DNA from: a virus
Lineage: Duplodnaviria; Caudoviricetes
Reading direction: 5' to 3' (one strand)
IMG/VR virus record: IMGVR_UViG_2563367078_000003
Location: 46,946 to 110,945 of that record
Length of the DNA: 64,000 nucleotides
In this document: piece by piece, positions 3,224 to 47,614 of the stretch
How the letters are laid out: each line of letters starts with the position of its first letter
Position numbering within the stretch: the stretch's first letter is position 1
Position numbers and translations under genes: made by a program
The notes under the pieces: generated by a model
Database searches by the model: none
What the model was told of the DNA's origin: nothing
Seen by the model: the letters and a program-made list of their open reading frames with translations, nothing else

Positions 3224-3279
3224 CGTCAAGGCCCGCTCTGGTCTAAGTTTTCGACACTTAGATAGAGCGGGCCTTGACG
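3224..3279. terminator. hairpin between convergent genes with nested palindromic operator-like site
   Basis: 16-bp IR CGTCAAGGCCCGCTCT / AGAGCGGGCCTTGACG enclosing TCTAAGT-N7-ACTTAGA. Confidence 0.7.
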
Positions 3280-17802: not shown

Positions 17803-19617
17803 TTAGATGACCCCGAGATCATGGATCGCGCCCATAATTGCTTGAATGCGCTCGAAAGCACGCGCCACCGGATCGACCGGAATGCGTTGACCGATAGTGA
17901 TGTTCCACGTCGGCGCGGTTTTGCGATCCCAGGTCAGCGTAATTTCCGAGACACGGTCCACGTAAATAGACCCGGGAGGTGTGCCTCGAACGGTAGAGCC
18001 GATTCTGTCGCCGACATAAAAGTGACCGAAACCGTTTTGACCGACCAGCCATGGCAAGCCGTCAGCGACCGAGAATTTATGCGTGAATATCTCGCGCGTC
18101 GCCCACATCGATGCCCGGAGTCCAAGCAGTGCGGAAATGGTGTAGGCGTTGTCTCCTCCAGCCGCGAATCGCTCTCTGTAATGACTGAATCCAAGGCTTT
18201 GCGCGCGACTCGGATCCTTCCATGCCATAAAACTCAGAAAAACGTCGGTATATAGCGGCTTGAGCAGGGAATCCAACATTCCGCCAATAGGTGGAACGCC
18301 GATCATCATTGCGATCATGTCTCCGGCCATATTCACGGTCGCGGAGATCAATTCATTGACACCGGGCATCGAGTGTCCGCCCGTTACGTGCTGAACGTCT
18401 TTCGCTGGAGAACCGGTGAACAATGACGTCTGAATACCCGAGTGGGCTTCTTCGCGGTAGATGATTCCGGGGCACTGCGGCAGCGTTCCGATCCATCCCG
18501 GCTGGTAGTACTCCTCGGGGAAGTTCGGGTCGGGAATCGGCAGCGTGCCGTCGTCGAAACCATCGGTGGCGAACTGCTGCACGGCATAGAGGAGACCGGT
18601 GAACAAATCGCCGCCGAAACTGGTCCCGGTGGTGTACCCCGATTTGTCGAGGATATCGATGATCAGGCAGCCGTTGCGGAGCTTAGCGCCTTCCCAGGGG
18701 GGTGGATCTCCGGTGAGATATCTTCGGAATGTCGGCGTGAGCTGAGCGTCCTGAAGAATCGGCTTCGCGACGGTGAAGAAATCTTTGAACCGCGCCAGAA
18801 GAATAGCGAAGACAGAATTGTCCTGCCCGACCGGATCAGGCGCGACGACCATTGACCACGACGACTGATCCAGGTCGAACCACTGATTAGCATCGAGGGG
18901 GTCGTCCGGCAGCATCCACAAAGACGATTCGAGCCGGAGAATATTACAGAAAAGCGTCGTTTTCAGACACCACTTAGCAGGTCCGAAAAGCAGCCACCAT
19001 TTTGGAAACTGGATCTCGGCGGGCAAAAAAGGATTGGAGCATATTTACCTTGCCAGGTCCACCCCCCGCCTAGTCTTCCGGGTAATCCAGAATTTCAGCG
19101 GGGGGCGGACCCAGCACAGGATGTGCTTCAATTCTTCGAAATCATGCTTGAACAGCACCCGGCAAATCATCGTGCCGTCTTGCTGTTTCTCGATTTCGTA
19201 GTGATCCATGCGGCCCGACCAGCGGACCCCATCCTTATCGACGGTTACATGGATATTCTTGGTCGTACGACCATCATGGTTGATAACCCATTGACTGAGG
19301 TAATAGTCGACAGGCATCTCGATCTTGCCCGAGCCGGTCTCGCCGTCGATCTCCTGGAAACTCGCGGTATAGGCGTGCGCGACCCTCCCTCGCAGGATCC
19401 AGTTGCCGTCGAATAGTTTGACGGTCGGCATCCTGAGGCGGTTGTCGCGCTGTTGTTTGATGTTGTTGACGATCGACCAGTATTCGGCGTCGCAATCGAT
19501 CGGAGTTACTTCGGAATCAGGCTCGCCGGGGCCGCGATGAAACGGCTTTCGCAGCGTTACGGTCTGAGCCTCTTGCCGATATCGGCGGGCGTCTGTTGGC
19601 CCGAGGTTGTGAATCAT
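17803..19617 (-). CDS. large minor tail protein (L5 gp28-like) interrupted by an in-frame stop-containing 72-nt insertion
   Basis: ORFs 19045..19617 and 17803..19026 are in one frame; KHILCW | SNPFLPAEIQFPK rejoin on removing 19039-19110 (~580 aa). Confidence 0.8.
19039..19110 (-). other. 72-nt hairpin insertion: candidate bypass element or mini-intron
   Basis: 20-bp stem 19116-19097 / 19070-19051, inner 6-bp stem, in-frame TAA at 19045-19047. Confidence 0.7.
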
Positions 19618-20639: not shown

Positions 20640-23600
20640 TCAGCTGCCGAAGATTCCGAGCGGGTCGAAACCCAGGGTCGCTTCGCGCTGAGTTTGCTTC
20701 CACTTCCCCATCGCCTCGTCGACGTCGCTCACGTGGAAATGAACTTCGGTCGGGTGGAGGAATTGAGAAAGCGGATTCTGATTTTGCTGTTGCTGCGGCT
20801 GTGCGCCAGGAGGAGGCGTTCCCGGTTGCGTCGTGACACCCTCTTGTCCGGGGTCGAGCGGATTCGCCGGAGGCTTGGACAAGTCGCCTTGAATCTGATT
20901 GGACAGGGTTTGGTACGCGGGTTTGCCGAGCTTTCCCGACTTCTGATACGCGTCCAGCGCCAGCAGATAACTCGGAACCTGCGTGAATGCCGCTTCTGCA
21001 AGGCCGTCACCGCTCGTAGATCCGCCGAGGTCTCCGACGAATTGATCGAAGTTGGCTTTCGCGAACGCCTGACCCGCCGACTGCGCCTTCAGTCCGAGAC
21101 CGTTGGCTTGCGCTGCGGCGTTCCAGTTGTCGTTGAGATTGCCGAGCATGTTGTTCGGAATGACGGTTTCGCCGCCGCCGAACAGCACCAGTTCCGGGCC
21201 GAGTTCGCCGACCAGGGACCACCCCTTCTTCGCGTTCGTCGTTCCGGTCGCGTAACCCTTCGGAGGCATATTCGCGTTCGCTTGCTGCACCCGATCAATC
21301 CCGCCGTATTTCGACTTGATGTAATTGATGCTCGCTGCGAGGTTGTCGACACCTTCGAAGATGTTTTTGTGGCCTGGTGCGGCGAATGCCGCGAACGTGG
21401 TCCCCGTCGTTTGAGCCAAACCCTTCGATGGATTACCGGCTTTCGCGTTGTCGTCCCAGTCGTTGATCGCGCCGGTATTCCACCCGGATTCGCGCTCGAC
21501 GAGGGTGTTCATCCCGGCTTCCCACTGCTCTTTCGTGCCGGGAGGCGGAGTGTGGGTCAGTGCCAGCGCGGCATCGATCACCGCCAGCCGGTCACCGGTC
21601 GGGATTGCTCCGCCGATGGTGTTCGTCGATTCGTGGCCGCGAATGAGGTTGGCGATGTCGTCACGGCTCTTGGTCGCGATCTGCTTCGGGAAGCTACCGA
21701 GGAAGCCCTTCTGGCCGCCGATCATCGGGTCGGGAATCGCGTTCAGCACCGGGTCGGTCAGCTTCTGGAACAAATCCGAAATGCCGGACCGGACGCCGCC
21801 GACCACTGCCTGGAACGCGCTGCCGATCATGCCGAAGAAGCCGCCACCAGATCCCTTGTCCCCATCAGCTCCAGCGCCCGAATATGCGGGGTTGAAGAAC
21901 TTCCCGGGCAGGTAGTAGTGGTCAGCGAACTGCGAGTCGTCAGCGCCGATTGCAGGGCCGTCTACGCGGATGTCATCGTGAACGCCGCCCGACTCCAGCT
22001 TGTGTCCGGCGAGAGTGGTCGCCATGTGTCCGTAATTGCCGGGCAGCGGTGTGACGCCGATCTCCATGATTCCGCCACGTCCTGGAACGAACCCGAGCGC
22101 GGTGAAGTCGGAGGTCGTAGTGAATTCCCGCTTCGGAGTACGACCCAGGAGCGAGTCGTAGATACCGGAAGCCAAACCCGAACAGTCCAGCCAGCCTTGG
22201 TCGTTGTATGGCCTGCCTTGATAGCCAGCAGCCCACTGCAGAGCACGGGCGATTGCCGGGTTGGTCGAACCGTCTGTCGGGCCGCCGTCAGCGAATCTCA
22301 GTCCGGCCGCTTTGCGCATATGCCGGAACGCGATGCCGCCGAGGGAGAATCCCGGAACTTCGGCCTCGGCGTGTGCGGGTGTGCCGCCGAGTGCGAACCC
22401 TGGAATCATCGCGCGTTCGCCGCCGAAATTCATGGCATCCAATACCGCGCGGTTGCGGCTGGTCGCTTCGGCGTTGACGATGTATTCCCGGTTGGAAACG
22501 GCTACGACATGTTTGTCCTCGCGCGAACCGCCGGTGCCGTTGATATATCCGGGTGAACCGTCCGGCTGACCACCGCTTGCGTATCCCGGAATAGTATCAA
22601 TTTTGCCCAGGCCGGGAATCTTGCCGACGATGTCGTTGTTCCAGATGCCGATAACCCAGTTGATCGGGGTAGCGAACACCTTTTTGATTCCGTCCCAGAT
22701 ATCGCCGATATCCTTCAGCAGCCCGGAGAAGGTGCCTTTGATTCCGTCGACGAAGCTGCCGATGCCGGTGTCGTTCTTCAGCGCATCCCACGCCTTCGAA
22801 GCGATATCCTTGACGTCGCCCCACAATTTCGTGAACGCGTCGGCGATTTTCTTTCCGAGATCTTCGACGAGCTTGATCAGTTTATCGGGCAGCGATTCGA
22901 ACCATTTGATGACGTCGTTGACCAAGTCCGGGATAATCGAGTGACCGACCATTTCGTCGTACAGCCATTCGAACCAGTGGATAATTCCGTTGACAATTCC
23001 GAGAACGATTCCTTCGACGGTTTTCCAGGCACCCTTCAGGATGTCGATGACCTCGCCGAACAGCGACGTAACCAGGTGCCATACTCCGGCAAAGAATGTG
23101 CCCAGTCCGGACAGCATATCTTTAAATCCGTTGCCTATTCCGTCGAGTCCGCTCTTGAACGTCGAGAAATCGCCGGTGAATACACCCTTCAGGAGGCCGA
23201 ATATGGTCTTGAAGAAATTGAAGCAGATTTCGAAGACGCCCTTCACGGTCTCGAAGAATCCGCTGATCATCATAATCAGGCCGCGGACCGCGTTGACGAT
23301 ATTCTTGATCGTGTCGACAAAAACGCCGATAATCGGCCCTATGACCCCGGAAATTACGCTCATCACGACTTTTCCGATAGCGACGAACGCGCCGCCGATA
23401 AAGTCGAGAATAGGCTTCGAGTTATTCCACAGAACCTTCAGCGAAGACCACAAAGAATCGAACGCCGGTTTCAGGTCTTTATCCCATTCGGCTTTCAGGC
23501 TCGACCATATTCCGCCGAACGTAGCCTTCATATCCTGGAGTTCAGGAGCGAATGTTTTGCCGAGCGACTTTCCGGCGGAGACTACCGCGCCACCGACGCT

Positions 23601-26600
23601 GGACCCGGCGTGCATGATCGCGCTTCCGGTTTTCTGCAGGCCGGTCTGACCGTTGGAATCCTTCTTCGTCGCGAAGCTCGCTACAGCGCCGCCAGCCTTC
23701 TTCGTGTCGTTGACGACGGCCGCGCCGAACTCCTGGACCCCCTTGGGCATCTTGTTCCAGATGTCTTGGAAGACCTTGGTTTGCGTTGCGAGGTAACCGA
23801 TTCCGGCTGCGACGCCTGCGATAGCGCCCGCAATCAACACGAACGGGTTCAGGTCCAGTGCCGCGTCGAGCAGGAACCACCCGGCGGCTAGGGGAGCCAG
23901 GATCGGCAGCATCGGCTGGAGCCAATTCATCACTGCGGCAAAGCCGGTCGCGAGATCCTTGATGATCGGGGCGATGGCGATGATCGCGGGGAACGAACTC
24001 TGCACGAGAATGCCGATGATCTGGCCGACGTCCTTCATCACGCTCGCGATGGCGCTGGCGATGACGGGCAGATCCTTCATCCCGGGACCGAGGCCGTTCA
24101 GAAACCCCGCAGCCAGGTCATTGACGCCTTGCAGCAGCGTCGACAGCGCCTGAGAAGCGGGTCCGGCGTACTGGCCGATGAATGTGCCGATCTGAATGAG
24201 GAACTTACCGACCTGATCACCCAGCGAGCGCCACAGATCACCGAAACCGGCCGACCCTGCAGACATCTGCGAGAACATCGTGCCGATATCGGTTCCGAGT
24301 GAGCGCATCCCGTCGCGGAAGCCCGTAACAGCTGGTTGCGAATTCTGCAGCGCCGTAACGACTCCCGGCACGGGCCCGAGCATCAACCCGGTCAGTGCGT
24401 CGGTGAACGGCTGAACGTAATCGGCCGCGCTCTGGAAGCCCTGCTGAATAACCGGCTTCATGTCCATGAACTGCTGTTTCAGCGACTGCATCGCGTTGTG
24501 CAACGGGCCCTGAAGTGGCGCAGCGAGATCCGCGAACATCGCAGACATCTGAGACATCGCGCTATTAGCGTCCTTGGTCGCTTTCGCGAGTTCGCTATTG
24601 GCGCGGGCCTGTTCCTGAAGCGCGACCTTGACAGACTCGGCGGCTTTGAGCTGAGCTTCGGCGGTCTCGCGCTGAGTGTTGACGAGATCCTGTTGCGAGA
24701 CCTTCTGCTGATAATCTGCGTCAGCCAGAGCCTCTTTACCCTTGATGACCTTGTCGTTGCCTTCGACACCCTTTTTGGCTGCGACAGCCGCGTTGTCCTG
24801 AAGCTGCTGATTCTTCACGCGAACTTCGTCTTGGTGGGCTTTCGCTTCATCGATTTGATTGAAAGCGTCTTCGTAATCAAGCGGCGTAACGTCTTGCCGC
24901 TTACCGAGTTGGGTGAGGTTTTGGTATGCGCGCGCTACACCAATGTCGGCGGAACGCTGATTGATCGGAGCCTGCTCGAGCTGCAGCTGCAGATCCTCGA
25001 GTTCCTGGCGAGCGTCGCGGTATGCCTCGGTGAGTGACCGGCGGGCATCTTCCTCGTTGCGGTCGGCCATCTGTACTTCGTGCTGCGCTGCCGCGATCCT
25101 CTGGCTGGATTCGATCGCCGTATCGGCGACATCTCGGTACGCCTGGGCGAGGTCACGCTTGGCGGTCTCGGCTTGCAGCTGCGCGGCGTCCATCGCCTCT
25201 TTGTGGCTGGCGGCGAGCCGCTTGTTGACCGCGATAGCCGCTCCACCGGCTGCGATGACACCAGCGGCAAGACCGGTCGTCATCACCGCGCCCAGAGCCG
25301 CAGAGCCGAGGCTGACCAGCGCCATAGCCGACGCAAGATCCTTGACCGACTTCGTAGCCTTATCAGCAGCGCTCTTGATGCCGTCCAGGCCGCTGGAGTC
25401 GGTATCGACCCTTGCAGTCCGCGCCTTTGCGACTTCGTCGAGTTGGGCTCTCGCTTCGGCGGTGTCGGCCTTCGCGGTGATCACTGCCTCGCGCTGTTGT
25501 GCGGAGTGCTCGAACTGCGCATTCGATATACCGGTCGCAGCTGTGTTCTTGATCGTCGAGATAGTGCGGCTGGCGTCGGCGTCGACTTGGTCGCGATTTT
25601 CGCCCCGGTAGACGGCCACCTGACGCGTCGCGACGGCTCGGTCGATGTCGCGTTTAGCTCCTGCGCTCCGTTGGTCGATGTCGAGCTTTTTGTTTCGTGC
25701 CGCGAAATCGAGGTTGTCCTTCGCGCTGGTGATCATCGTCTGGATTTCCATCGGCCGCTTGCCGGGGAAAGCCTTGTCGAGTTCGTCCTTCGCGTTCTTC
25801 AGATCAAGATCAATTTGAAGTTTGCGGCGCTTGGCTACGTCATCGATCGCGGCCTTCGCATCACCGGCTTGCGCCTGGACCCTGATCGTCGCTGTACGAT
25901 CCTCGGCGGTCTTGTCGATCTTCGCTTTGGCCGTTGCCGCCGATTCCATCGCTTTCTGAGCCTGGGACTGCTTGCGTGCGTGAGCTTTTTCCGCAGCGCT
26001 CTGGTCGCGAGCGTCCTGGACGATTCCGGCTTTGGTTTTCTTCGTGGTGGCGCGTTCGTCGATCCCTTGCTGATCCGCCCACTGCTGGACTACGTTCTTT
26101 TGCCGCAGCTCATCCATCCGCGCGGAGTTCTTGGCGTTCTTCGCCTCGGATTCGAGCCCGCTCTTTTCATTGAACGCCGCACGCGCCGATTGCGGATTTC
26201 GCCTTCGATCGGGATATCGTTCATTGACGTCGCGTTTCGCCTGCCCGAGCCCTTCATCGATCTCGACGTAGCGCTTGCGGCGCACCTCTTCGATCGCGTA
26301 ATTCATCCTGTTTTTCTGGGCGATCAGGTCGCTCATGCGCTTTTGCGAGGCGGCGTCGGCTTCGATTTTCGCTACGATCGGCGAGACGCGGGGTTTCGCG
26401 AGTTCGTTGAGTTCGGCATTGGCTTCGGAGACGTTCTCGGGGGTTGCGACGAACTCCGCTGCGCGTTTCTGGTTCAGCCCGTCGAAAGCGGCTGCTGCTT
26501 CGGAGACGCCTTGGACTTCCGTGCCGATGACGTTGGTGCGGTCGCGCATAGCGTCATCGGCAGCAGTGGCGGCTTCGCGAGCATTCTCGGGCCGATACCG

Positions 26601-26960
26601 GATGATCACCGTGCGGTCGTGCGCAGCCTGGTCGAGATCCCGCACCGCGTCCGCTGTCTCGGCTACAGCCTTCATCGTCACCGGACGGAAGCGGGCGGTT
26701 TCGTTGAGCTGCCCCTCGGCGGTCTTGGTGTCGGCAACGCCGTGGAGATGAACGTCCTGGGGCGTGCTCGTCAGAGCCTTGATTTCCGCTATATCATCGT
26801 CGAGGCCGGACAGCTTGACGCGGATGTTGATCGCCTCGTCGGCCAATTTTTGGAGTTCGGTGCGCGTCTCCAAAAAGTCCTTGCGAGCGGCTTCCATCGC
26901 CGGTTTACCGAGATATGCGGCGGTGATGGAGAATTCCAGCGAGGACCTTACTGTTGCCAT
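20640..26960 (-). CDS. tape measure protein with NlpC/P60-like peptidase and lytic transglycosylase domains
   Basis: 2106 aa helical; TM region; DCSGL..GHMA; RESGWN..AINDWD.N..G.PSKGL.Q. Confidence 0.92.
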   Translation of the reverse strand: MATVRSSLEFSITAAYLGKPAMEAARKDFLETRTELQKLADEAINIRVKLSGLDDDIAEIKALTSTPQDVHLHGVADTKTAEGQLNETARFRPVTMKAVAETADAVRDLDQAAHDRTVIIRYRPENAREAATAADDAMRDRTNVIGTEVQGVSEAAAAFDGLNQKRAAEFVATPENVSEANAELNELAKPRVSPIVAKIEADAASQKRMSDLIAQKNRMNYAIEEVRRKRYVEIDEGLGQAKRDVNERYPDRRRNPQSARAAFNEKSGLESEAKNAKNSARMDELRQKNVVQQWADQQGIDERATTKKTKAGIVQDARDQSAAEKAHARKQSQAQKAMESAATAKAKIDKTAEDRTATIRVQAQAGDAKAAIDDVAKRRKLQIDLDLKNAKDELDKAFPGKRPMEIQTMITSAKDNLDFAARNKKLDIDQRSAGAKRDIDRAVATRQVAVYRGENRDQVDADASRTISTIKNTAATGISNAQFEHSAQQREAVITAKADTAEARAQLDEVAKARTARVDTDSSGLDGIKSAADKATKSVKDLASAMALVSLGSAALGAVMTTGLAAGVIAAGGAAIAVNKRLAASHKEAMDAAQLQAETAKRDLAQAYRDVADTAIESSQRIAAAQHEVQMADRNEEDARRSLTEAYRDARQELEDLQLQLEQAPINQRSADIGVARAYQNLTQLGKRQDVTPLDYEDAFNQIDEAKAHQDEVRVKNQQLQDNAAVAAKKGVEGNDKVIKGKEALADADYQQKVSQQDLVNTQRETAEAQLKAAESVKVALQEQARANSELAKATKDANSAMSQMSAMFADLAAPLQGPLHNAMQSLKQQFMDMKPVIQQGFQSAADYVQPFTDALTGLMLGPVPGVVTALQNSQPAVTGFRDGMRSLGTDIGTMFSQMSAGSAGFGDLWRSLGDQVGKFLIQIGTFIGQYAGPASQALSTLLQGVNDLAAGFLNGLGPGMKDLPVIASAIASVMKDVGQIIGILVQSSFPAIIAIAPIIKDLATGFAAVMNWLQPMLPILAPLAAGWFLLDAALDLNPFVLIAGAIAGVAAGIGYLATQTKVFQDIWNKMPKGVQEFGAAVVNDTKKAGGAVASFATKKDSNGQTGLQKTGSAIMHAGSSVGGAVVSAGKSLGKTFAPELQDMKATFGGIWSSLKAEWDKDLKPAFDSLWSSLKVLWNNSKPILDFIGGAFVAIGKVVMSVISGVIGPIIGVFVDTIKNIVNAVRGLIMMISGFFETVKGVFEICFNFFKTIFGLLKGVFTGDFSTFKSGLDGIGNGFKDMLSGLGTFFAGVWHLVTSLFGEVIDILKGAWKTVEGIVLGIVNGIIHWFEWLYDEMVGHSIIPDLVNDVIKWFESLPDKLIKLVEDLGKKIADAFTKLWGDVKDIASKAWDALKNDTGIGSFVDGIKGTFSGLLKDIGDIWDGIKKVFATPINWVIGIWNNDIVGKIPGLGKIDTIPGYASGGQPDGSPGYINGTGGSREDKHVVAVSNREYIVNAEATSRNRAVLDAMNFGGERAMIPGFALGGTPAHAEAEVPGFSLGGIAFRHMRKAAGLRFADGGPTDGSTNPAIARALQWAAGYQGRPYNDQGWLDCSGLASGIYDSLLGRTPKREFTTTSDFTALGFVPGRGGIMEIGVTPLPGNYGHMATTLAGHKLESGGVHDDIRVDGPAIGADDSQFADHYYLPGKFFNPAYSGAGADGDKGSGGGFFGMIGSAFQAVVGGVRSGISDLFQKLTDPVLNAIPDPMIGGQKGFLGSFPKQIATKSRDDIANLIRGHESTNTIGGAIPTGDRLAVIDAALALTHTPPPGTKEQWEAGMNTLVERESGWNTGAINDWDDNAKAGNPSKGLAQTTGTTFAAFAAPGHKNIFEGVDNLAASINYIKSKYGGIDRVQQANANMPPKGYATGTTNAKKGWSLVGELGPELVLFGGGETVIPNNMLGNLNDNWNAAAQANGLGLKAQSAGQAFAKANFDQFVGDLGGSTSGDGLAEAAFTQVPSYLLALDAYQKSGKLGKPAYQTLSNQIQGDLSKPPANPLDPGQEGVTTQPGTPPPGAQPQQQQNQNPLSQFLHPTEVHFHVSDVDEAMGKWKQTQREATLGFDPLGIFGS

Positions 26961-31357: not shown

Positions 31358-34063
31358 TTACGCCTGGCCCTGAAGGACCTTGAAAGCGTTCGGAACCAGA
31401 ACGACCGAGTTGTTCATCCAGATCGCATAAATACCGCGCTGGCCGGTCGGACGCTGGTTCGAACCGAATACCTGGGGGATCAGCTCGACACTCATGCCGA
31501 TACGGTCCACAATCAGGAACTGCTGGAAATCACCAAAGATCAGGAACAGGTCGCCGGTAGCGTGGGTCGACGCCATGACCGAGGACTCCAGAGCTGGGTA
31601 ACCCAGCAGCTCCGAAGGCATTCCCGCGCCAATGCGCTGCCACAGCTGAGCGCCACCGTACTGATCGAACTGGCGAATCTTATTGTAATTCGCGCGGTGA
31701 GCGATAAACTTGGCGTTCGCATTACGCCAGCGCGGATCGAGGCTTTCCTCGAGGTGGTAAACATCAGCGGCAGTGAATGCCTGACCCGGAGTCGCGGCCA
31801 CGTAGGAACCGCCCGGCAGAGTGCCGATGACGCCGCCCGCGTTGGTGCCGGTGCCATCCCCCAGCATGAACGAGTTCGCCTCTTCGCGACCCTTGGCGTC
31901 AACCAGAGCGCGGGTGATCTCGGAACGCACCTGCGACCAAGACTCAGCCAATTCGTACGAGAACGGAATGAAGCCAGCGACACGGTTGGTCTTCACGGTC
32001 GGCTGGGTCAGGGAGAAGCTGTTGTCCGACGCTTCCGACGCCTCAGCAGAACGGGTGACGCTGGTGCCCGCAGACACGACGCCCATCCATTCCTTGCCGA
32101 CGATCTGCTCGACGCGGGAAACGCTCCGCAGCGGATCGATGACGCCAGCACTCGTAAGGATTACAGTAGGATCGAGTTCGAACGGCACAGCATACCCGCC
32201 GCTACCGTCAGTTCCCAAAGACAGAGCACGATATTCCTCGCCGGACAGCATCTGCGGCGTACCCGCAGCAACCGTCTTCGACCAGGCGCGCTCATACAAG
32301 CTCGAGCCGGTCCGCAGCATCCGATGAGCCAGGGTGGCGTTCTCGTCGTCGACGGTGTCCAGCAGCGCCTGTGCGCTCGTCTGAGCGTCCTCCTTGGCAA
32401 CCATGCGGGTGTAGTTGGCGCGCTCGATTGCACGGGCGGCGTTGTCCCGGACCAGCTGCAGGTAGTCGTCCTCGTTGTGCGACGCCTGGCGGATCTCGTT
32501 CAGGTCGTAGATGTTCTCCGGCTTGCGGCTACCGGTCGGAGCAGACGAGAACGAACGCTCGGTGCGGCCCTCCCGCTCGCCCTCGGCCAGCTCGTCCATC
32601 CGCTTCAGAATCGCGGCGATACGAGCCTCCACCTTCGGCCGCTCATCGCGGAGTTCGGTGTTCTCGGTCTCGACGTCGGCAGGCAGCTCAGCGTCACGGA
32701 ATTCGACATTGATCTCGGCAACGCGGGCATCGATCTCCGCCAGGCGCTGCCGCAACTCGGTAAGAGTCACAGGGGTTTTCCTCTTTACGGGAGCCTCATC
32801 GGCTCGGGTTTCTTTCTTTTCGGACTCCCGTGCGCGCAAGGTGCCTTCATCGGCGGCGTTGTCGTCTTCGGGGTTAATGGCGTCGGTCAGGGTGTCGCGT
32901 TGTTCGACGGCGCTGTCCTCAGCGGATTTGGATTCGATGTCAGCGCCGAACTTCTTCGCTGCGGCCCTGATCTTCGATTTGATTGCCTGCAATTCATCGG
33001 GGCTGTAGCCCTTCTGGTTTTTCGGCATGTTTATGTACGACCACGCGGCCCTGACGTGAGCCTTCGTGTCGATCGGGTATTTGCCGTTCTTCGGATCTGC
33101 GTAAGCGACGTCGCCGTAAGGCTTTTTGTCATCGCTGGCGCGGCCGTCCGGCATAGTCGGGGAATGCGTCATACAGACGCCGTTGGAAAAGGAATGCTCT
33201 ACGCCGTCTTCATCGACATACGTATCGACCTCGGCGTCGACATCCTTTGTGTCGTCATCGCCATCGGTGTCGCCGTCGAGTGCGGTTTCCGGCGGATCGG
33301 TCGGGCCGTCGCGGAGTTCTTTCGCCGTCTCGATCGCCTTGTCGACATCCGCCATATGAATGTGGATCTCGGTCTTCGGAGGTTCGCTGCGGACGGTTTC
33401 ATCGGCCTTCGGAGCGGCTTCCAGCTCGGCCATCGTTCGGCGGTATTCATCGACAATCGCCTGGCGCTGTTCGTCGGTGATCTCGTCCATCGAACGGACG
33501 CCAACCGAAGTGCCTTCGTAAGCCGGATAAATCACAGGCCCGGCTTCCATCAGCTTGACCTCGCGGATAGTCCGCTGCAATGGGCCGCGATCTCCGGCAT
33601 CCCACAGGAGCCTGTTCAGCTCATTGCCGCCAACGCTCCGCCCCTGAGAGTCGGACCAGTCCTGGCGAGTGACAGTGAAAGTGAACGACATTCCGCTGAT
33701 GGCCTGCGCTTCAATGGCCTGGCGGATCGGCTCGACGAGGTCGTTTTCAAAAAGCCGTGCCTCTACATACAAGCCGTGGTCGTCTTCGCGCATCTCGGTG
33801 AAGACGCCGATCGGGACGCCACCAGTGCGGGAATCACGGCCGTGCGCGAACTGGCAAATAGGAAGCTTGCCCTCTTGGAGGGTCTTTTTGAAGCAGCCAG
33901 GAGCCAAGCGCTCGGTAAACGCGCCTTCGAAACTATTGATTTGCGTGTCTTGTCCAAAAACAGCCGCGTAGCCGCACAACGTTCTCTTATCACTGGGAGC
34001 ATCACCGGTTGCGGCTAGCGTGAAATCGACGTCGCGAGTTATGATTCTATTGGCTGGAGGCAT
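31358..34063 (-). CDS. prohead protease - linker domain - HK97-fold major capsid fusion
   Basis: GYAAVF..GCF..H..GMSF.F..E..P.YEGT protease; GGYAVP, GDF..F.I.DR.G capsid motifs. Confidence 0.92.
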   Translation of the reverse strand: MPPANRIITRDVDFTLAATGDAPSDKRTLCGYAAVFGQDTQINSFEGAFTERLAPGCFKKTLQEGKLPICQFAHGRDSRTGGVPIGVFTEMREDDHGLYVEARLFENDLVEPIRQAIEAQAISGMSFTFTVTRQDWSDSQGRSVGGNELNRLLWDAGDRGPLQRTIREVKLMEAGPVIYPAYEGTSVGVRSMDEITDEQRQAIVDEYRRTMAELEAAPKADETVRSEPPKTEIHIHMADVDKAIETAKELRDGPTDPPETALDGDTDGDDDTKDVDAEVDTYVDEDGVEHSFSNGVCMTHSPTMPDGRASDDKKPYGDVAYADPKNGKYPIDTKAHVRAAWSYINMPKNQKGYSPDELQAIKSKIRAAAKKFGADIESKSAEDSAVEQRDTLTDAINPEDDNAADEGTLRARESEKKETRADEAPVKRKTPVTLTELRQRLAEIDARVAEINVEFRDAELPADVETENTELRDERPKVEARIAAILKRMDELAEGEREGRTERSFSSAPTGSRKPENIYDLNEIRQASHNEDDYLQLVRDNAARAIERANYTRMVAKEDAQTSAQALLDTVDDENATLAHRMLRTGSSLYERAWSKTVAAGTPQMLSGEEYRALSLGTDGSGGYAVPFELDPTVILTSAGVIDPLRSVSRVEQIVGKEWMGVVSAGTSVTRSAEASEASDNSFSLTQPTVKTNRVAGFIPFSYELAESWSQVRSEITRALVDAKGREEANSFMLGDGTGTNAGGVIGTLPGGSYVAATPGQAFTAADVYHLEESLDPRWRNANAKFIAHRANYNKIRQFDQYGGAQLWQRIGAGMPSELLGYPALESSVMASTHATGDLFLIFGDFQQFLIVDRIGMSVELIPQVFGSNQRPTGQRGIYAIWMNNSVVLVPNAFKVLQGQA

Positions 34064-46930: not shown

Positions 46931-47614
46931 ATGGAAATTGGTACCGAAACGCGAACTATCGAATTCGAGTCGTCGTGGGATTATGACAGGGGCCGGACAA
47001 CCAAGCCTTTCGATTTGATGCAAGCCTACTTCGAGCTGCACTACCGGGAGATTGCCGCGCACGTCAACAGCTCGATCAGCAACGGGAGGTCTGACGTTTA
47101 CTCCGCGTCTGAATGGCTGCTCAAATCTCTGGCTGCGGAGGCGTTCCCCGACCTGGACTCGACGGCCGTCTATGATGCGATGATCGACGCGGGAGAGTGC
47201 AGTATGGGGGTTGTGAGCCACCTGCGAGCGGATAAAGCGTCACAGTACGGAACGATCGCAACCCAGTATTGCCCATACTGCGGCGAGGGCGTGTCGGTTG
47301 TCGAGGCTGTCGGCGGGGGGCACCACTGGACCTGCCCCAAGGGTCACGCGGACACCGTCTATCTGGTCGAGCGCAACCTCATCGGCGGAATCACCCTCGC
47401 CGACGAACTCGACATCGAACCGGATGATGGAGATCATGACCTGCCGTACGTCGTGAGCTTGAACGGCGACATCCTGGGGCAGATCGACTCGGTTGACGGC
47501 GAGAAGATCGGCGTATGGATGTACGGCAACGATGACCTCCCGATCGATATCGGCCAGTACGAAACCTGCCTTGCCGCGATTCAAGCGCTCGCCGACAAGT
47601 ACGACAACCAGTAG
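46931..47614 (+). CDS. acidic hypothetical protein with central Zn ribbon
   Basis: CPYCG...CPKGH; AGGGG RBS. Confidence 0.65.
   Translation: MEIGTETRTIEFESSWDYDRGRTTKPFDLMQAYFELHYREIAAHVNSSISNGRSDVYSASEWLLKSLAAEAFPDLDSTAVYDAMIDAGECSMGVVSHLRADKASQYGTIATQYCPYCGEGVSVVEAVGGGHHWTCPKGHADTVYLVERNLIGGITLADELDIEPDDGDHDLPYVVSLNGDILGQIDSVDGEKIGVWMYGNDDLPIDIGQYETCLAAIQALADKYDNQ

Follow-up and report, generated by a model that had tools for sequence, protein, structure and literature searches.

Long-range programmed bypassing, in which the ribosome skips a stretch of mRNA, is among the rarest departures from linear decoding. As summarized in the literature, its established natural cases are gene 60 of phage T4 with its homologs and the byps of Magnusiomyces mitochondria, to which a short-gap candidate in the Streptomyces phage phiHau3 can be added (bioRxiv 10.1101/2022.08.31.505936; PMC10732093). 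The coding gap of T4 gene 60 measures 50 nucleotides (nt), and its homologs are described from topoisomerase genes of myoviruses; a take-off codon located in the 5′ side of a stem-loop is presented as a key requirement, and both in gene 60 and in the mitochondrial byps the take-off codon is followed by a stop or an undecodable codon (Manning and Atkins, bioRxiv 10.1101/2022.08.31.505936). According to the summary in the same preprint, the byps of Magnusiomyces capitatus measure 27-55 nt and amount to 81 inserts in 12 genes. In the phiHau3 terminase gene, a UUA-triggered bypass of 7-10-nt inserts is a candidate, for which support by mass spectrometry in E. coli is reported and a regulatory role is proposed (Antonov et al. 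2023, PMC10732093), while a possible bypass at a tape-measure start, as reported in PMC4351075, is unrelated. In phages, bypassing has so far been proven for T4 only. Here, we analyze a 64,000-nt stretch of viral DNA (IMG/VR record IMGVR_UViG_2563367078_000003, positions 46,946 to 110,945; in the following, the window), in which the baseplate-hub gene of a prophage is interrupted by a 72-nt hairpin gap that ribosomes probably skip via programmed translational bypass. The literature we searched, which did not extend to the supplementary candidate lists of the gene 60 preprint and the phiHau3 study, contains no description of hairpin gaps in actinophage tail genes.

The window is taken from a bacterial genome of 10.4 Mb in 174 contigs, and the gene lies in a prophage tail module encoded on its minus strand, where it appears as two open reading frames (ORFs) of 190 and 407 amino acids (aa). 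The Pfam profile PF14594 (Sipho_Gp37) is divided between them: the first ORF accounts for its positions 2-104 and the second for positions 105-369, at scores of 90.8 and 231.5 bits (cut-off 26.2). Likewise, a single solved chain, the 600-aa ‘Baseplate hub, gp25’ (9d93_Oa; E = 6.5e-104 for the PDB ‘Baseplate hub’ match), is matched by the upstream half over residues 4-141 and by the downstream half over residues 148-599, and the solved hub homologs are single chains of 587-600 aa. Finally, alignment with the uninterrupted hubs of the Rhodococcus phages REQ3 (Orf50) and Shuman (gp23) reveals a clean 24-codon insertion between W and (S/P)NPF. The split profile, the alignment and the single solved chain each show that the two ORFs constitute one interrupted baseplate-hub gene (Tal-like, PF14594). 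It lies downstream of the tape measure and a Dit-like gene, that is, in a tail-gene context, and a search of this genome for hub homologs gave this one match at E ≤ 1e-20 and no second.

An earlier note, made from the letters of this DNA, had proposed a tail gene interrupted by an in-frame, stop-containing 72-nt hairpin, whose removal restores the junction HILCW-SNPF and a protein of about 580 aa. The sequence stands on the minus strand as quoted there, and the restored protein matches the uninterrupted REQ3 and Shuman hubs. Of the coordinates given, 19039-19116, the start is accurate, whereas the end marks the outer end of the 5′ hairpin arm; the insert, exactly 72 nt long, ends at 19110. Frame 1, which opens with the ATG at 19617, passes through 24 extra codons that include a single UAA (19045-19047), continues with SNPFLPAEIQFPK and ends at the stop at 17803. 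Its features are the following:

19045-19617, minus strand: upstream hub ORF, 190 aa
17803-19026, minus strand: downstream hub ORF, 407 aa
19111-19617, minus strand: 5′ coding segment of the hub, 169 codons ending ..EELKHILCW (delimited by Pfam positions 2-104, 9d93_Oa residues 4-141 and the REQ3/Shuman alignment)
19111-19113, minus strand: candidate take-off codon UGG (Trp169), the last codon common to uninterrupted homologs, fully paired in the predicted 5′ arm
19039-19110, minus strand: coding gap, 72 nt or 24 in-frame codons with one UAA, absent from uninterrupted homologs
19051-19116, minus strand: main hairpin, a GC-rich stem of about 20 base pairs (bp) with the Cys-Trp codons as its base, a C-rich 5′ arm and a G-rich 3′ arm
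19076-19092, minus strand: inner 6-bp mini-hairpin inside the large loop (predicted fold)
19046-19050, minus strand: Shine-Dalgarno (SD)-like AAGGU about 6 nt 5′ of the landing codon, read from the sequence, with a putative role by analogy with gene 60
19045-19047, minus strand: UAA, the sole stop of the gap (frame 0 is the resume frame here)
19039-19041, minus strand: candidate landing codon UGC, whose first two bases are those of UGG
17803-19038, minus strand: 3′ coding segment, 411 codons, with resume codon UCC (19036-19038), then NPFLPAEIQFPK, and the stop at 17803-17805 (Pfam positions 105-369, 9d93_Oa residues 148-599)

In the reading we favor, the hub mRNA would be translated up to Trp169, whose UGG codon lies in the base of a very stable GC hairpin. 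The peptidyl-tRNA(Trp) would release this codon and remain in the P site, the mRNA would slide, and the hairpin would refold and thereby join both ends of the gap. The tRNA would then re-pair at the UGC 72 nt downstream, perhaps helped by the AAGGU six bases upstream, and decoding would restart at UCC to yield one hub of about 580 aa (..HILCW-SNPFLPAEIQ..) with the predicted junction peptide HILCWSNPFLPAEIQFPK. The earlier note had left the choice between a hop and excision at the RNA level. The comparative data described below favor a hop with UGG as the take-off codon, and are less favorable to RNA excision and to a hop from UGC to UGC (75 nt); the latter is disfavored because it would remove an aromatic residue (W or Y) that is kept by all aligned homologs. 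We infer that removal takes place on the ribosome, and the same applies to its efficiency and to the mobility of the element. Since the solved hub entry contains three copies of the hub chain, a modest bypass efficiency could suffice, and this may explain why the hub tolerates such inserts.

Similar gaps are present in other hub genes. We searched the C-terminal half of the hub in 267 genomes of the same genus, 150 of which gave a match, ran two IUPAC patterns derived from the first gaps against IMG/VR, and inspected a profile-guided sample of 80 IMG/VR hub loci, which contained nine gap-bearing genes (three of them identical to loci already counted). Our gap counts come from the hub matches listed, with 150 weaker genus matches left out. 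Among the matches listed, all genus entries with short open frames, internal stops or split matches carried hairpin inserts, and 28 distinct gaps were found in 26 hub genes of prophages and IMG/VR contigs. The cuts fall inside strongly conserved motifs rather than linkers, at six sites:

..CW|SNPF: 3 gaps, window included
..NPF|LP: 7 gaps
..FPRxW|(I)LF: 2 gaps
..LLF|GPAKW: 2 gaps
..W(A/C)L|KTT: 1 gap
..SMPGV|NE: 13 gaps

Two genes, L036 and L156, carry two gaps each, and all three of their segments are open in both. The gaps are 48-55 nt long in 26 of 28 cases, the exceptions being L137 (61 nt) and the window (72 nt). Modulo three, their lengths leave 0 in 11, 1 in 12 and 2 in five of the 28, and their first base is invariably G (28/28). 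Where hub-bearing matches have record titles, these name Nocardia species or an uncultured actinobacterial metagenome-assembled genome (MAG). On this comparative evidence, these hairpin gaps of 48-72 nt form one family, whose members were all found in hub genes of Nocardia-type prophages.

The patterns also inform on the distribution of these elements. The UUU-type pattern occurs seven times in the 267 genus genomes, always within hub genes (reversed control: 0), and its three matches in IMG/VR all lie in hub genes. A dispersed palindromic repeat, similar to repetitive extragenic palindromes or miniature inverted-repeat transposable elements, was therefore rejected, because the UUU-type pattern is confined to hub genes in these genomes and the window gap is single-copy in its 10.4-Mb genome. 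In the named genome collection, six of the 12 stretches with pattern A contained a hub gene (5 Nocardia, 1 uncultured Actinomycetota MAG); the remaining six (four from Endomicrobium, one each from Clostridia and Gemmatales) had none and were rejected. The UUU-type pattern was observed, as 53-nt matches, in four contigs of one Endomicrobium MAG (L111, L112, L113 and L117), which suggests an unrelated repeated palindromic element of that genome. Five matches of the UGG-type pattern in metagenome contigs, none of them in a hub gene, were judged to be chance, and 36 of 42 IMG/VR matches of a looser site-2 pattern lay outside hub genes. Two candidates that resemble an ordinary terminator hairpin (L081 and L101) were dropped, and the IMG/VR hub gene L158 (985-1060) was left out because its frame simply changes near reference residue 109-110, where the matches overlap and a hairpin is absent; this may reflect an error in sequencing, a genuine frameshift mutation or programmed frameshifting. 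Beyond the 28 gaps, public protein collections contain five more short N-terminal fragments that stop at these motifs and have comparable tails: in P0002, P0004, P0006 and P0007, ..CW or ..VW is followed by a short tail that starts with V, and in P0003 a tail follows ..ILF. We regard these, known as protein sequences alone, as hints only.

At the window's own site, the relatives L026 and L137 carry inserts of 55 and 61 nt, neither of which is a multiple of three. In L137, the 61-nt insert repeats the two-tier architecture of the window (outer stem, CUGAAA, inner 6-bp hairpin) with an unrelated inner-stem sequence, and it features a perfect UGG...UGG codon pair. These relatives bear on the simplest alternative for the window, readthrough of the UAA, by which the 24 in-frame codons would be translated as a 24-residue loop of the hub. 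The window gap, being a multiple of three with a single stop, would be compatible with such readthrough, which the earlier note had named as a result that would count against its proposal. We nevertheless consider it highly improbable: the inserts of the same-site relatives, seen at the DNA level, are not multiples of three, a frame-0 stop together with a resume-frame stop excludes any linear reading of L026, the insertion would fall within the invariant CW-SNPF motif, and the constraint on the gap follows RNA structure without any codon-position pattern (1 change in 72). Across the family, 16 of 28 gaps are undecodable linearly even with one frameshift, so that simple readthrough or a single frameshift is insufficient.

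The gap ends show a regular relationship between the presumed take-off and landing codons. In 26 of 28 gaps, all three bases of the take-off codon are paired within the predicted hairpin, and in the other two the codon is partly paired. The triplet before the resume codon, in turn, pairs with the take-off tRNA at at least two of three positions in all 28 gaps, and fully in 12 of them, whereas at 21 other offsets (−15 to +6) the same match of at least two positions is reached in 0-12 of 28 gaps and a full match in 0-1. The middle base of the codon pair is kept in 27 of 28. The pairs (take-off>landing) are:

GUU>GUC, five gaps
UUU>UUC, four gaps
GUC>UUC, four gaps
UUU>CUC, three gaps
UGG>UGA, two gaps
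UGG>UGC (window), UGG>UGG, UGG>UGU, UUU>UUG and UUU>UUA, one gap each
GUC>GUG, GUC>GUC, GUC>GCC, CUU>CUC and GUG>UUG, one gap each

In the window, AAGGU, UAA and UGC are all present ahead of the resume codon UCC as the earlier note had described, and SD-like motifs were recognized by reading both here (AAGGU) and in the NPF-site gaps (RAAGGG). A stop in the resume frame (UGA, UAA or UAG) was also observed directly before the landing codon UUN or UGG in L017, L033, L036a, L131, L137 and L156a. Such a stop is present in most NPF-site gaps and in L137, and one codon further up in the window; it may end translation by any ribosome entering the gap in the resume frame.

Whether the downstream half could instead be translated on its own depends on its start codons. 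The downstream half lacks a good start in the window, as had been noted before: the nearest in-frame start is a UUG four codons past the resume codon, and its use would drop SNPF. In 14 of 21 elements checked, no start codon (AUG, GUG or UUG) is found from the last in-frame stop to the resume codon, and L026, L034, L035 and L036b also lack one within 36 nt downstream. This speaks against a split gene, in which two polypeptides (three in double-gap genes) would assemble non-covalently and translation of the downstream piece would begin non-canonically or through re-initiation once termination had occurred in or near the hairpin. A split gene would equally predict purifying selection on both halves; it would also be consistent with a frame-0 stop inside the gap in 13 of 21 elements checked, often in the loop, with a UUG or GUG codon directly ahead of the resume codon in two elements (L017 and L032), and with the UUG of the window. 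However, it does not predict a take-off/landing match that peaks at a single offset, nor cuts in conserved motifs instead of linkers, and the solved homologs are single chains. We therefore regard a split gene as unlikely.

The hairpin itself is predicted with high significance. Its minimum free energy is −64.3 kcal/mol over 121 nt (z = −7.35), none of 200 dinucleotide shuffles folds as well, and its arms correspond to 19051-19069 and 19098-19116. This agrees with the 20-bp hairpin, with Cys-Trp codons at the stem base, of the earlier note, as does its remark that the wobbles are G-U in the mRNA sense only: the G-U pairs are sense-specific, because the sense strand folds better (−53.2 kcal/mol) than the antisense strand (−36.5 kcal/mol), a difference of about 17 kcal/mol. 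In the family, the sense strand folds better than the antisense strand in 23 of 28 gaps, and this bias points to selection on the mRNA. Furthermore, when 12 site-2 hairpins are compared, their 20-bp helix is paired in 97.5% of cells and shows double-sided changes at 12 of its 20 pairs. The covariation score of these hairpins is 0.70, compared with 0.22 for shuffled controls (0/500 reach the observed value), and slid controls pair at 41-52%.

The sense-specific pairs in these 23 gaps would suit any RNA-level process, and hence also removal at the nucleic-acid level, be it by cutting and ligation of the mRNA, by a polymerase template switch at the hairpin base or by DNA excision on induction. 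In addition, the hairpin joins the gap ends, and short matches between these ends could guide a template switch. Still, such removal seems quite unlikely to us. An Rfam scan of 18800-19350 returned only sub-threshold microRNA-like hairpin matches and no intron or ribozyme family, and 48-72 nt is far below the size of group I/II introns, in keeping with the earlier judgment that the 72-nt gap is too small for self-splicing of this type. Moreover, the resume codon follows the stem foot at a variable distance, and the codon match is the only constant 3′ feature. The pairs UGG>UGC/UGA/UGU and UUU>UUG/UUA mismatch at the 3′-terminal base and thus fit the wobble tolerance of a tRNA better than re-annealing of a nascent 3′ end. 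Lastly, one DNA contig of a relative across the site retains the gap.

This contig, 338 nt long and from a metagenome (depth 3.7), spans 19017-19353 ungapped; contigs from the two sequencing runs compared cover parts of the window only, and those of one run end near the gap. It differs from the window by 25 changes in 243 coding nt, 20 of them at third positions and with 4 of 81 residues altered, whereas the 72-nt gap shows a single change, which converts a G-U into an A-U pair and keeps the structure; the constraint on the window gap is thus read from one contig at this depth. Close pairs of gap-bearing genes display ratios of nonsynonymous to synonymous substitution rates (dN/dS) of about 0.1-0.3 in both halves at synonymous differences of 0.3-0.8, and their gaps are 75-89% identical. 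These substitution patterns show flanks and gap to be under purifying selection, and all 26 gap-bearing genes are free of other stops or frameshifts in the segments examined.

The same data are relevant to the notion that the gaps are inactivating insertions, by which a mobile palindromic element would have knocked out the hub in cryptic prophages and left dead or dying halves behind. Every example is indeed a prophage or an uncultured contig, no gapped plaque-forming phage was found in DNA-level searches, and multi-site inserts with nearby mini-inteins mark the hub gene as a target of selfish elements. We nonetheless hold this explanation to be very unlikely: it is at odds with the absence of other lesions, with dN/dS of 0.1-0.3 at near-saturated synonymous divergence, with a relative whose changes are concentrated at third positions while its gap is nearly invariant, with a window prophage in which the tape-measure ORF of 2106 codons and every other large structural ORF are retained, and with the absence of the UUU-type pattern elsewhere in the 267 genomes. 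A defective phage, which the earlier note had listed among the possible objections, is likewise unlikely, because the other structural genes are intact and both hub halves are under purifying selection. In the DNA-level comparison with 50,697 phage records, neither the hub gene region (megablast) nor the gap regions of L100 and L033 (blastn) matched a cultured phage; this negative rests on these three DNA comparisons, and 2549 of the phage records searched at the protein level contain a hub homolog.

Compared with T4 gene 60, the bypass proposed here shows several parallels. The hub gaps are about 50 nt long, frame-independent and located in a gene needed by the phage; the take-off codon lies in the 5′ stem arm, and a candidate landing codon that matches it at two or three positions ends the gap, decoding then resuming, in the proposed reading, at the next. 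By reading, the window also has a candidate SD-like motif about 6 nt before the landing codon, and the setting is one of selfish elements. As for the nascent-peptide signal in the exit tunnel that belongs to the gene 60 cassette, the residues ahead of every hub site are part of conserved motifs, whose conservation would equally follow from protein function. By contrast, the hub gaps lack sequence similarity to gene 60 and reside in a baseplate hub rather than a topoisomerase, in siphovirus-like prophages of high-GC actinobacteria; their codon match often extends to 2/3 positions only, and they occupy six insertion sites instead of one. For a homing endonuclease of the MobA type, no ORF is present between the neighboring tail genes, and the gap region matches none of the 50,697 phage records.

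The mitochondrial byps, as far as the preprint summarizes them, are likewise short, GC-rich and apparently mobile hairpin inserts (48-55 nt in 26 of 28 hub gaps) that occur at several sites, more than once per gene and with matched flanking codons, while the host gene stays functional. They differ in their setting, which is yeast mitochondria and not bacterial ribosomes and a phage gene, and in their number: hub gaps reach at most two per gene in one gene family. phiHau3, according to the description in PMC10732093, resembles the hub gaps as an actinobacterial phage with an essential structural or packaging gene cut by short non-coding blocks, and is distinguished by gaps of 7-10 nt at a rare UUA, with no long hairpin and no multi-site family. 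By analogy, the hub gaps would work like gene 60 and the byps, as members of neither and without homology to them.

Several observations weigh against bypassing. Take-off is followed by GUC in the window and by GUN, GCN or GGC in 28/28 gaps, all of them ordinary sense codons, and neither a stop nor a hungry codon follows the hub take-off codon as in gene 60; a stop is the second gap codon in two of 28 gaps only (L079 and L176). In comparison with the byps as summarized in the preprint, the A-site codon of the hub gaps is a common sense codon, whereas theirs is unassigned. The 20-bp GC stem is far larger than the A-site stem-loop of gene 60, the window pair UGG/UGC matches at 2/3 positions only, with a C-C clash at the wobble position, and the site-2 gaps show no SD-like motif near the landing codon (by reading). 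All gap-bearing genes are from prophages or uncultured contigs, and DNA-level searches found none in cultured plaque-forming phages. Finally, a duplication of a 3-nt target site, rather than selection, could have left the codon match behind; that the middle base is invariant and that diverged orthologous gaps have kept the match argues for selection, without being proof.

An explanation that dispenses with a slow A-site codon is that the hairpin itself would act as the trigger. The take-off codon would then lie in the stem foot and the landing codon a few bases beyond the opposite foot. Whether the family is in this sense a bacterial counterpart of the byps, i.e. mobile GC hairpins of about 50 nt that invade conserved hub motifs and are skipped efficiently by ordinary bacterial ribosomes, is in our view an even call.

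The hub genes of the genus host yet another type of insert. Mini-inteins of about 150 residues are found in L030 (2650-3159, minus strand), L041 (about 1900-2360), L042 (about 1810-2305) and L043, near LLF|GPAKW and six residues after MPGV|NE, two motifs that also bear hairpin gaps. They begin with C..GET.I and end with ..HN followed by C or T, and the L030 insert matches the intein domain PF14890 at 44.1 bits (cut-off 35.8). The same intein is probably present in seven further entries of the genus, whose open frames span 743-859 aa and whose matches start at residue 13-14. Like the hairpin gaps, the mini-inteins are selfish, sit in neighboring conserved motifs of the same hub genes and are removed during expression, as is proposed for the gaps; unlike them, they comprise about 150 in-frame codons with a splicing domain and are removed at the protein level, whereas the hairpin gaps encode nothing and carry stops. 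The gaps appear to behave like small selfish inserts, as the mini-inteins do at neighboring positions of the hub gene, and would be tolerated because they are removed during expression.

The surroundings of the hub gene look like an intact structural module. The two genes next to it are:

20640-26960, minus strand: tape measure, 2106 aa
19631-20605, minus strand: Dit-like minor tail protein, 324 aa, between the tape measure and the hub ORFs

Further open structural ORFs encode TerL (528 aa), portal (508 aa), a protease-capsid protein (901 aa) and endolysin (351 aa), and the ORFs of the adaptor and of a 544-aa tail protein are open as well. Families of both the head maturation protease (residues 7-248) and the major head protein are matched by the 901-aa ORF (31358-34063, minus strand), which therefore looks like a protease-capsid fusion. 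The tape measure also matches the endolysin-annotated phrog_971 (residues 746-1331), which suggests embedded cell-wall hydrolase domains. The whole 64-kb window has a G+C content of about 55-62% with no obvious step to another host composition, so that the prophage or island may extend past the structural module. Perfect inverted repeats of 16-18 bp were observed at 2277-2325, 2681-2732 and 3224-3279.

For the annotation of these phages, the gaps have an immediate consequence: gene callers split gapped hub genes, and the fragments appear as separate proteins of 140-240 aa in public collections. Together with the nearby inteins, the gaps indicate that a tail-tip gene can be colonized by two kinds of self-removing elements. 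If the proposed bypass is true, an independent family in high-GC actinobacterial prophages, with its dozens of natural variants, its several sites, its double-gap genes and its lack of a stop at take-off, would allow the essential features of bypassing to be told apart from the incidental ones. It would represent a new, hairpin-driven route to long-range bypassing, with about 28 natural variants at six sites serving as a mutational series, and the hub gap sequences would constitute an experimentally tractable set.

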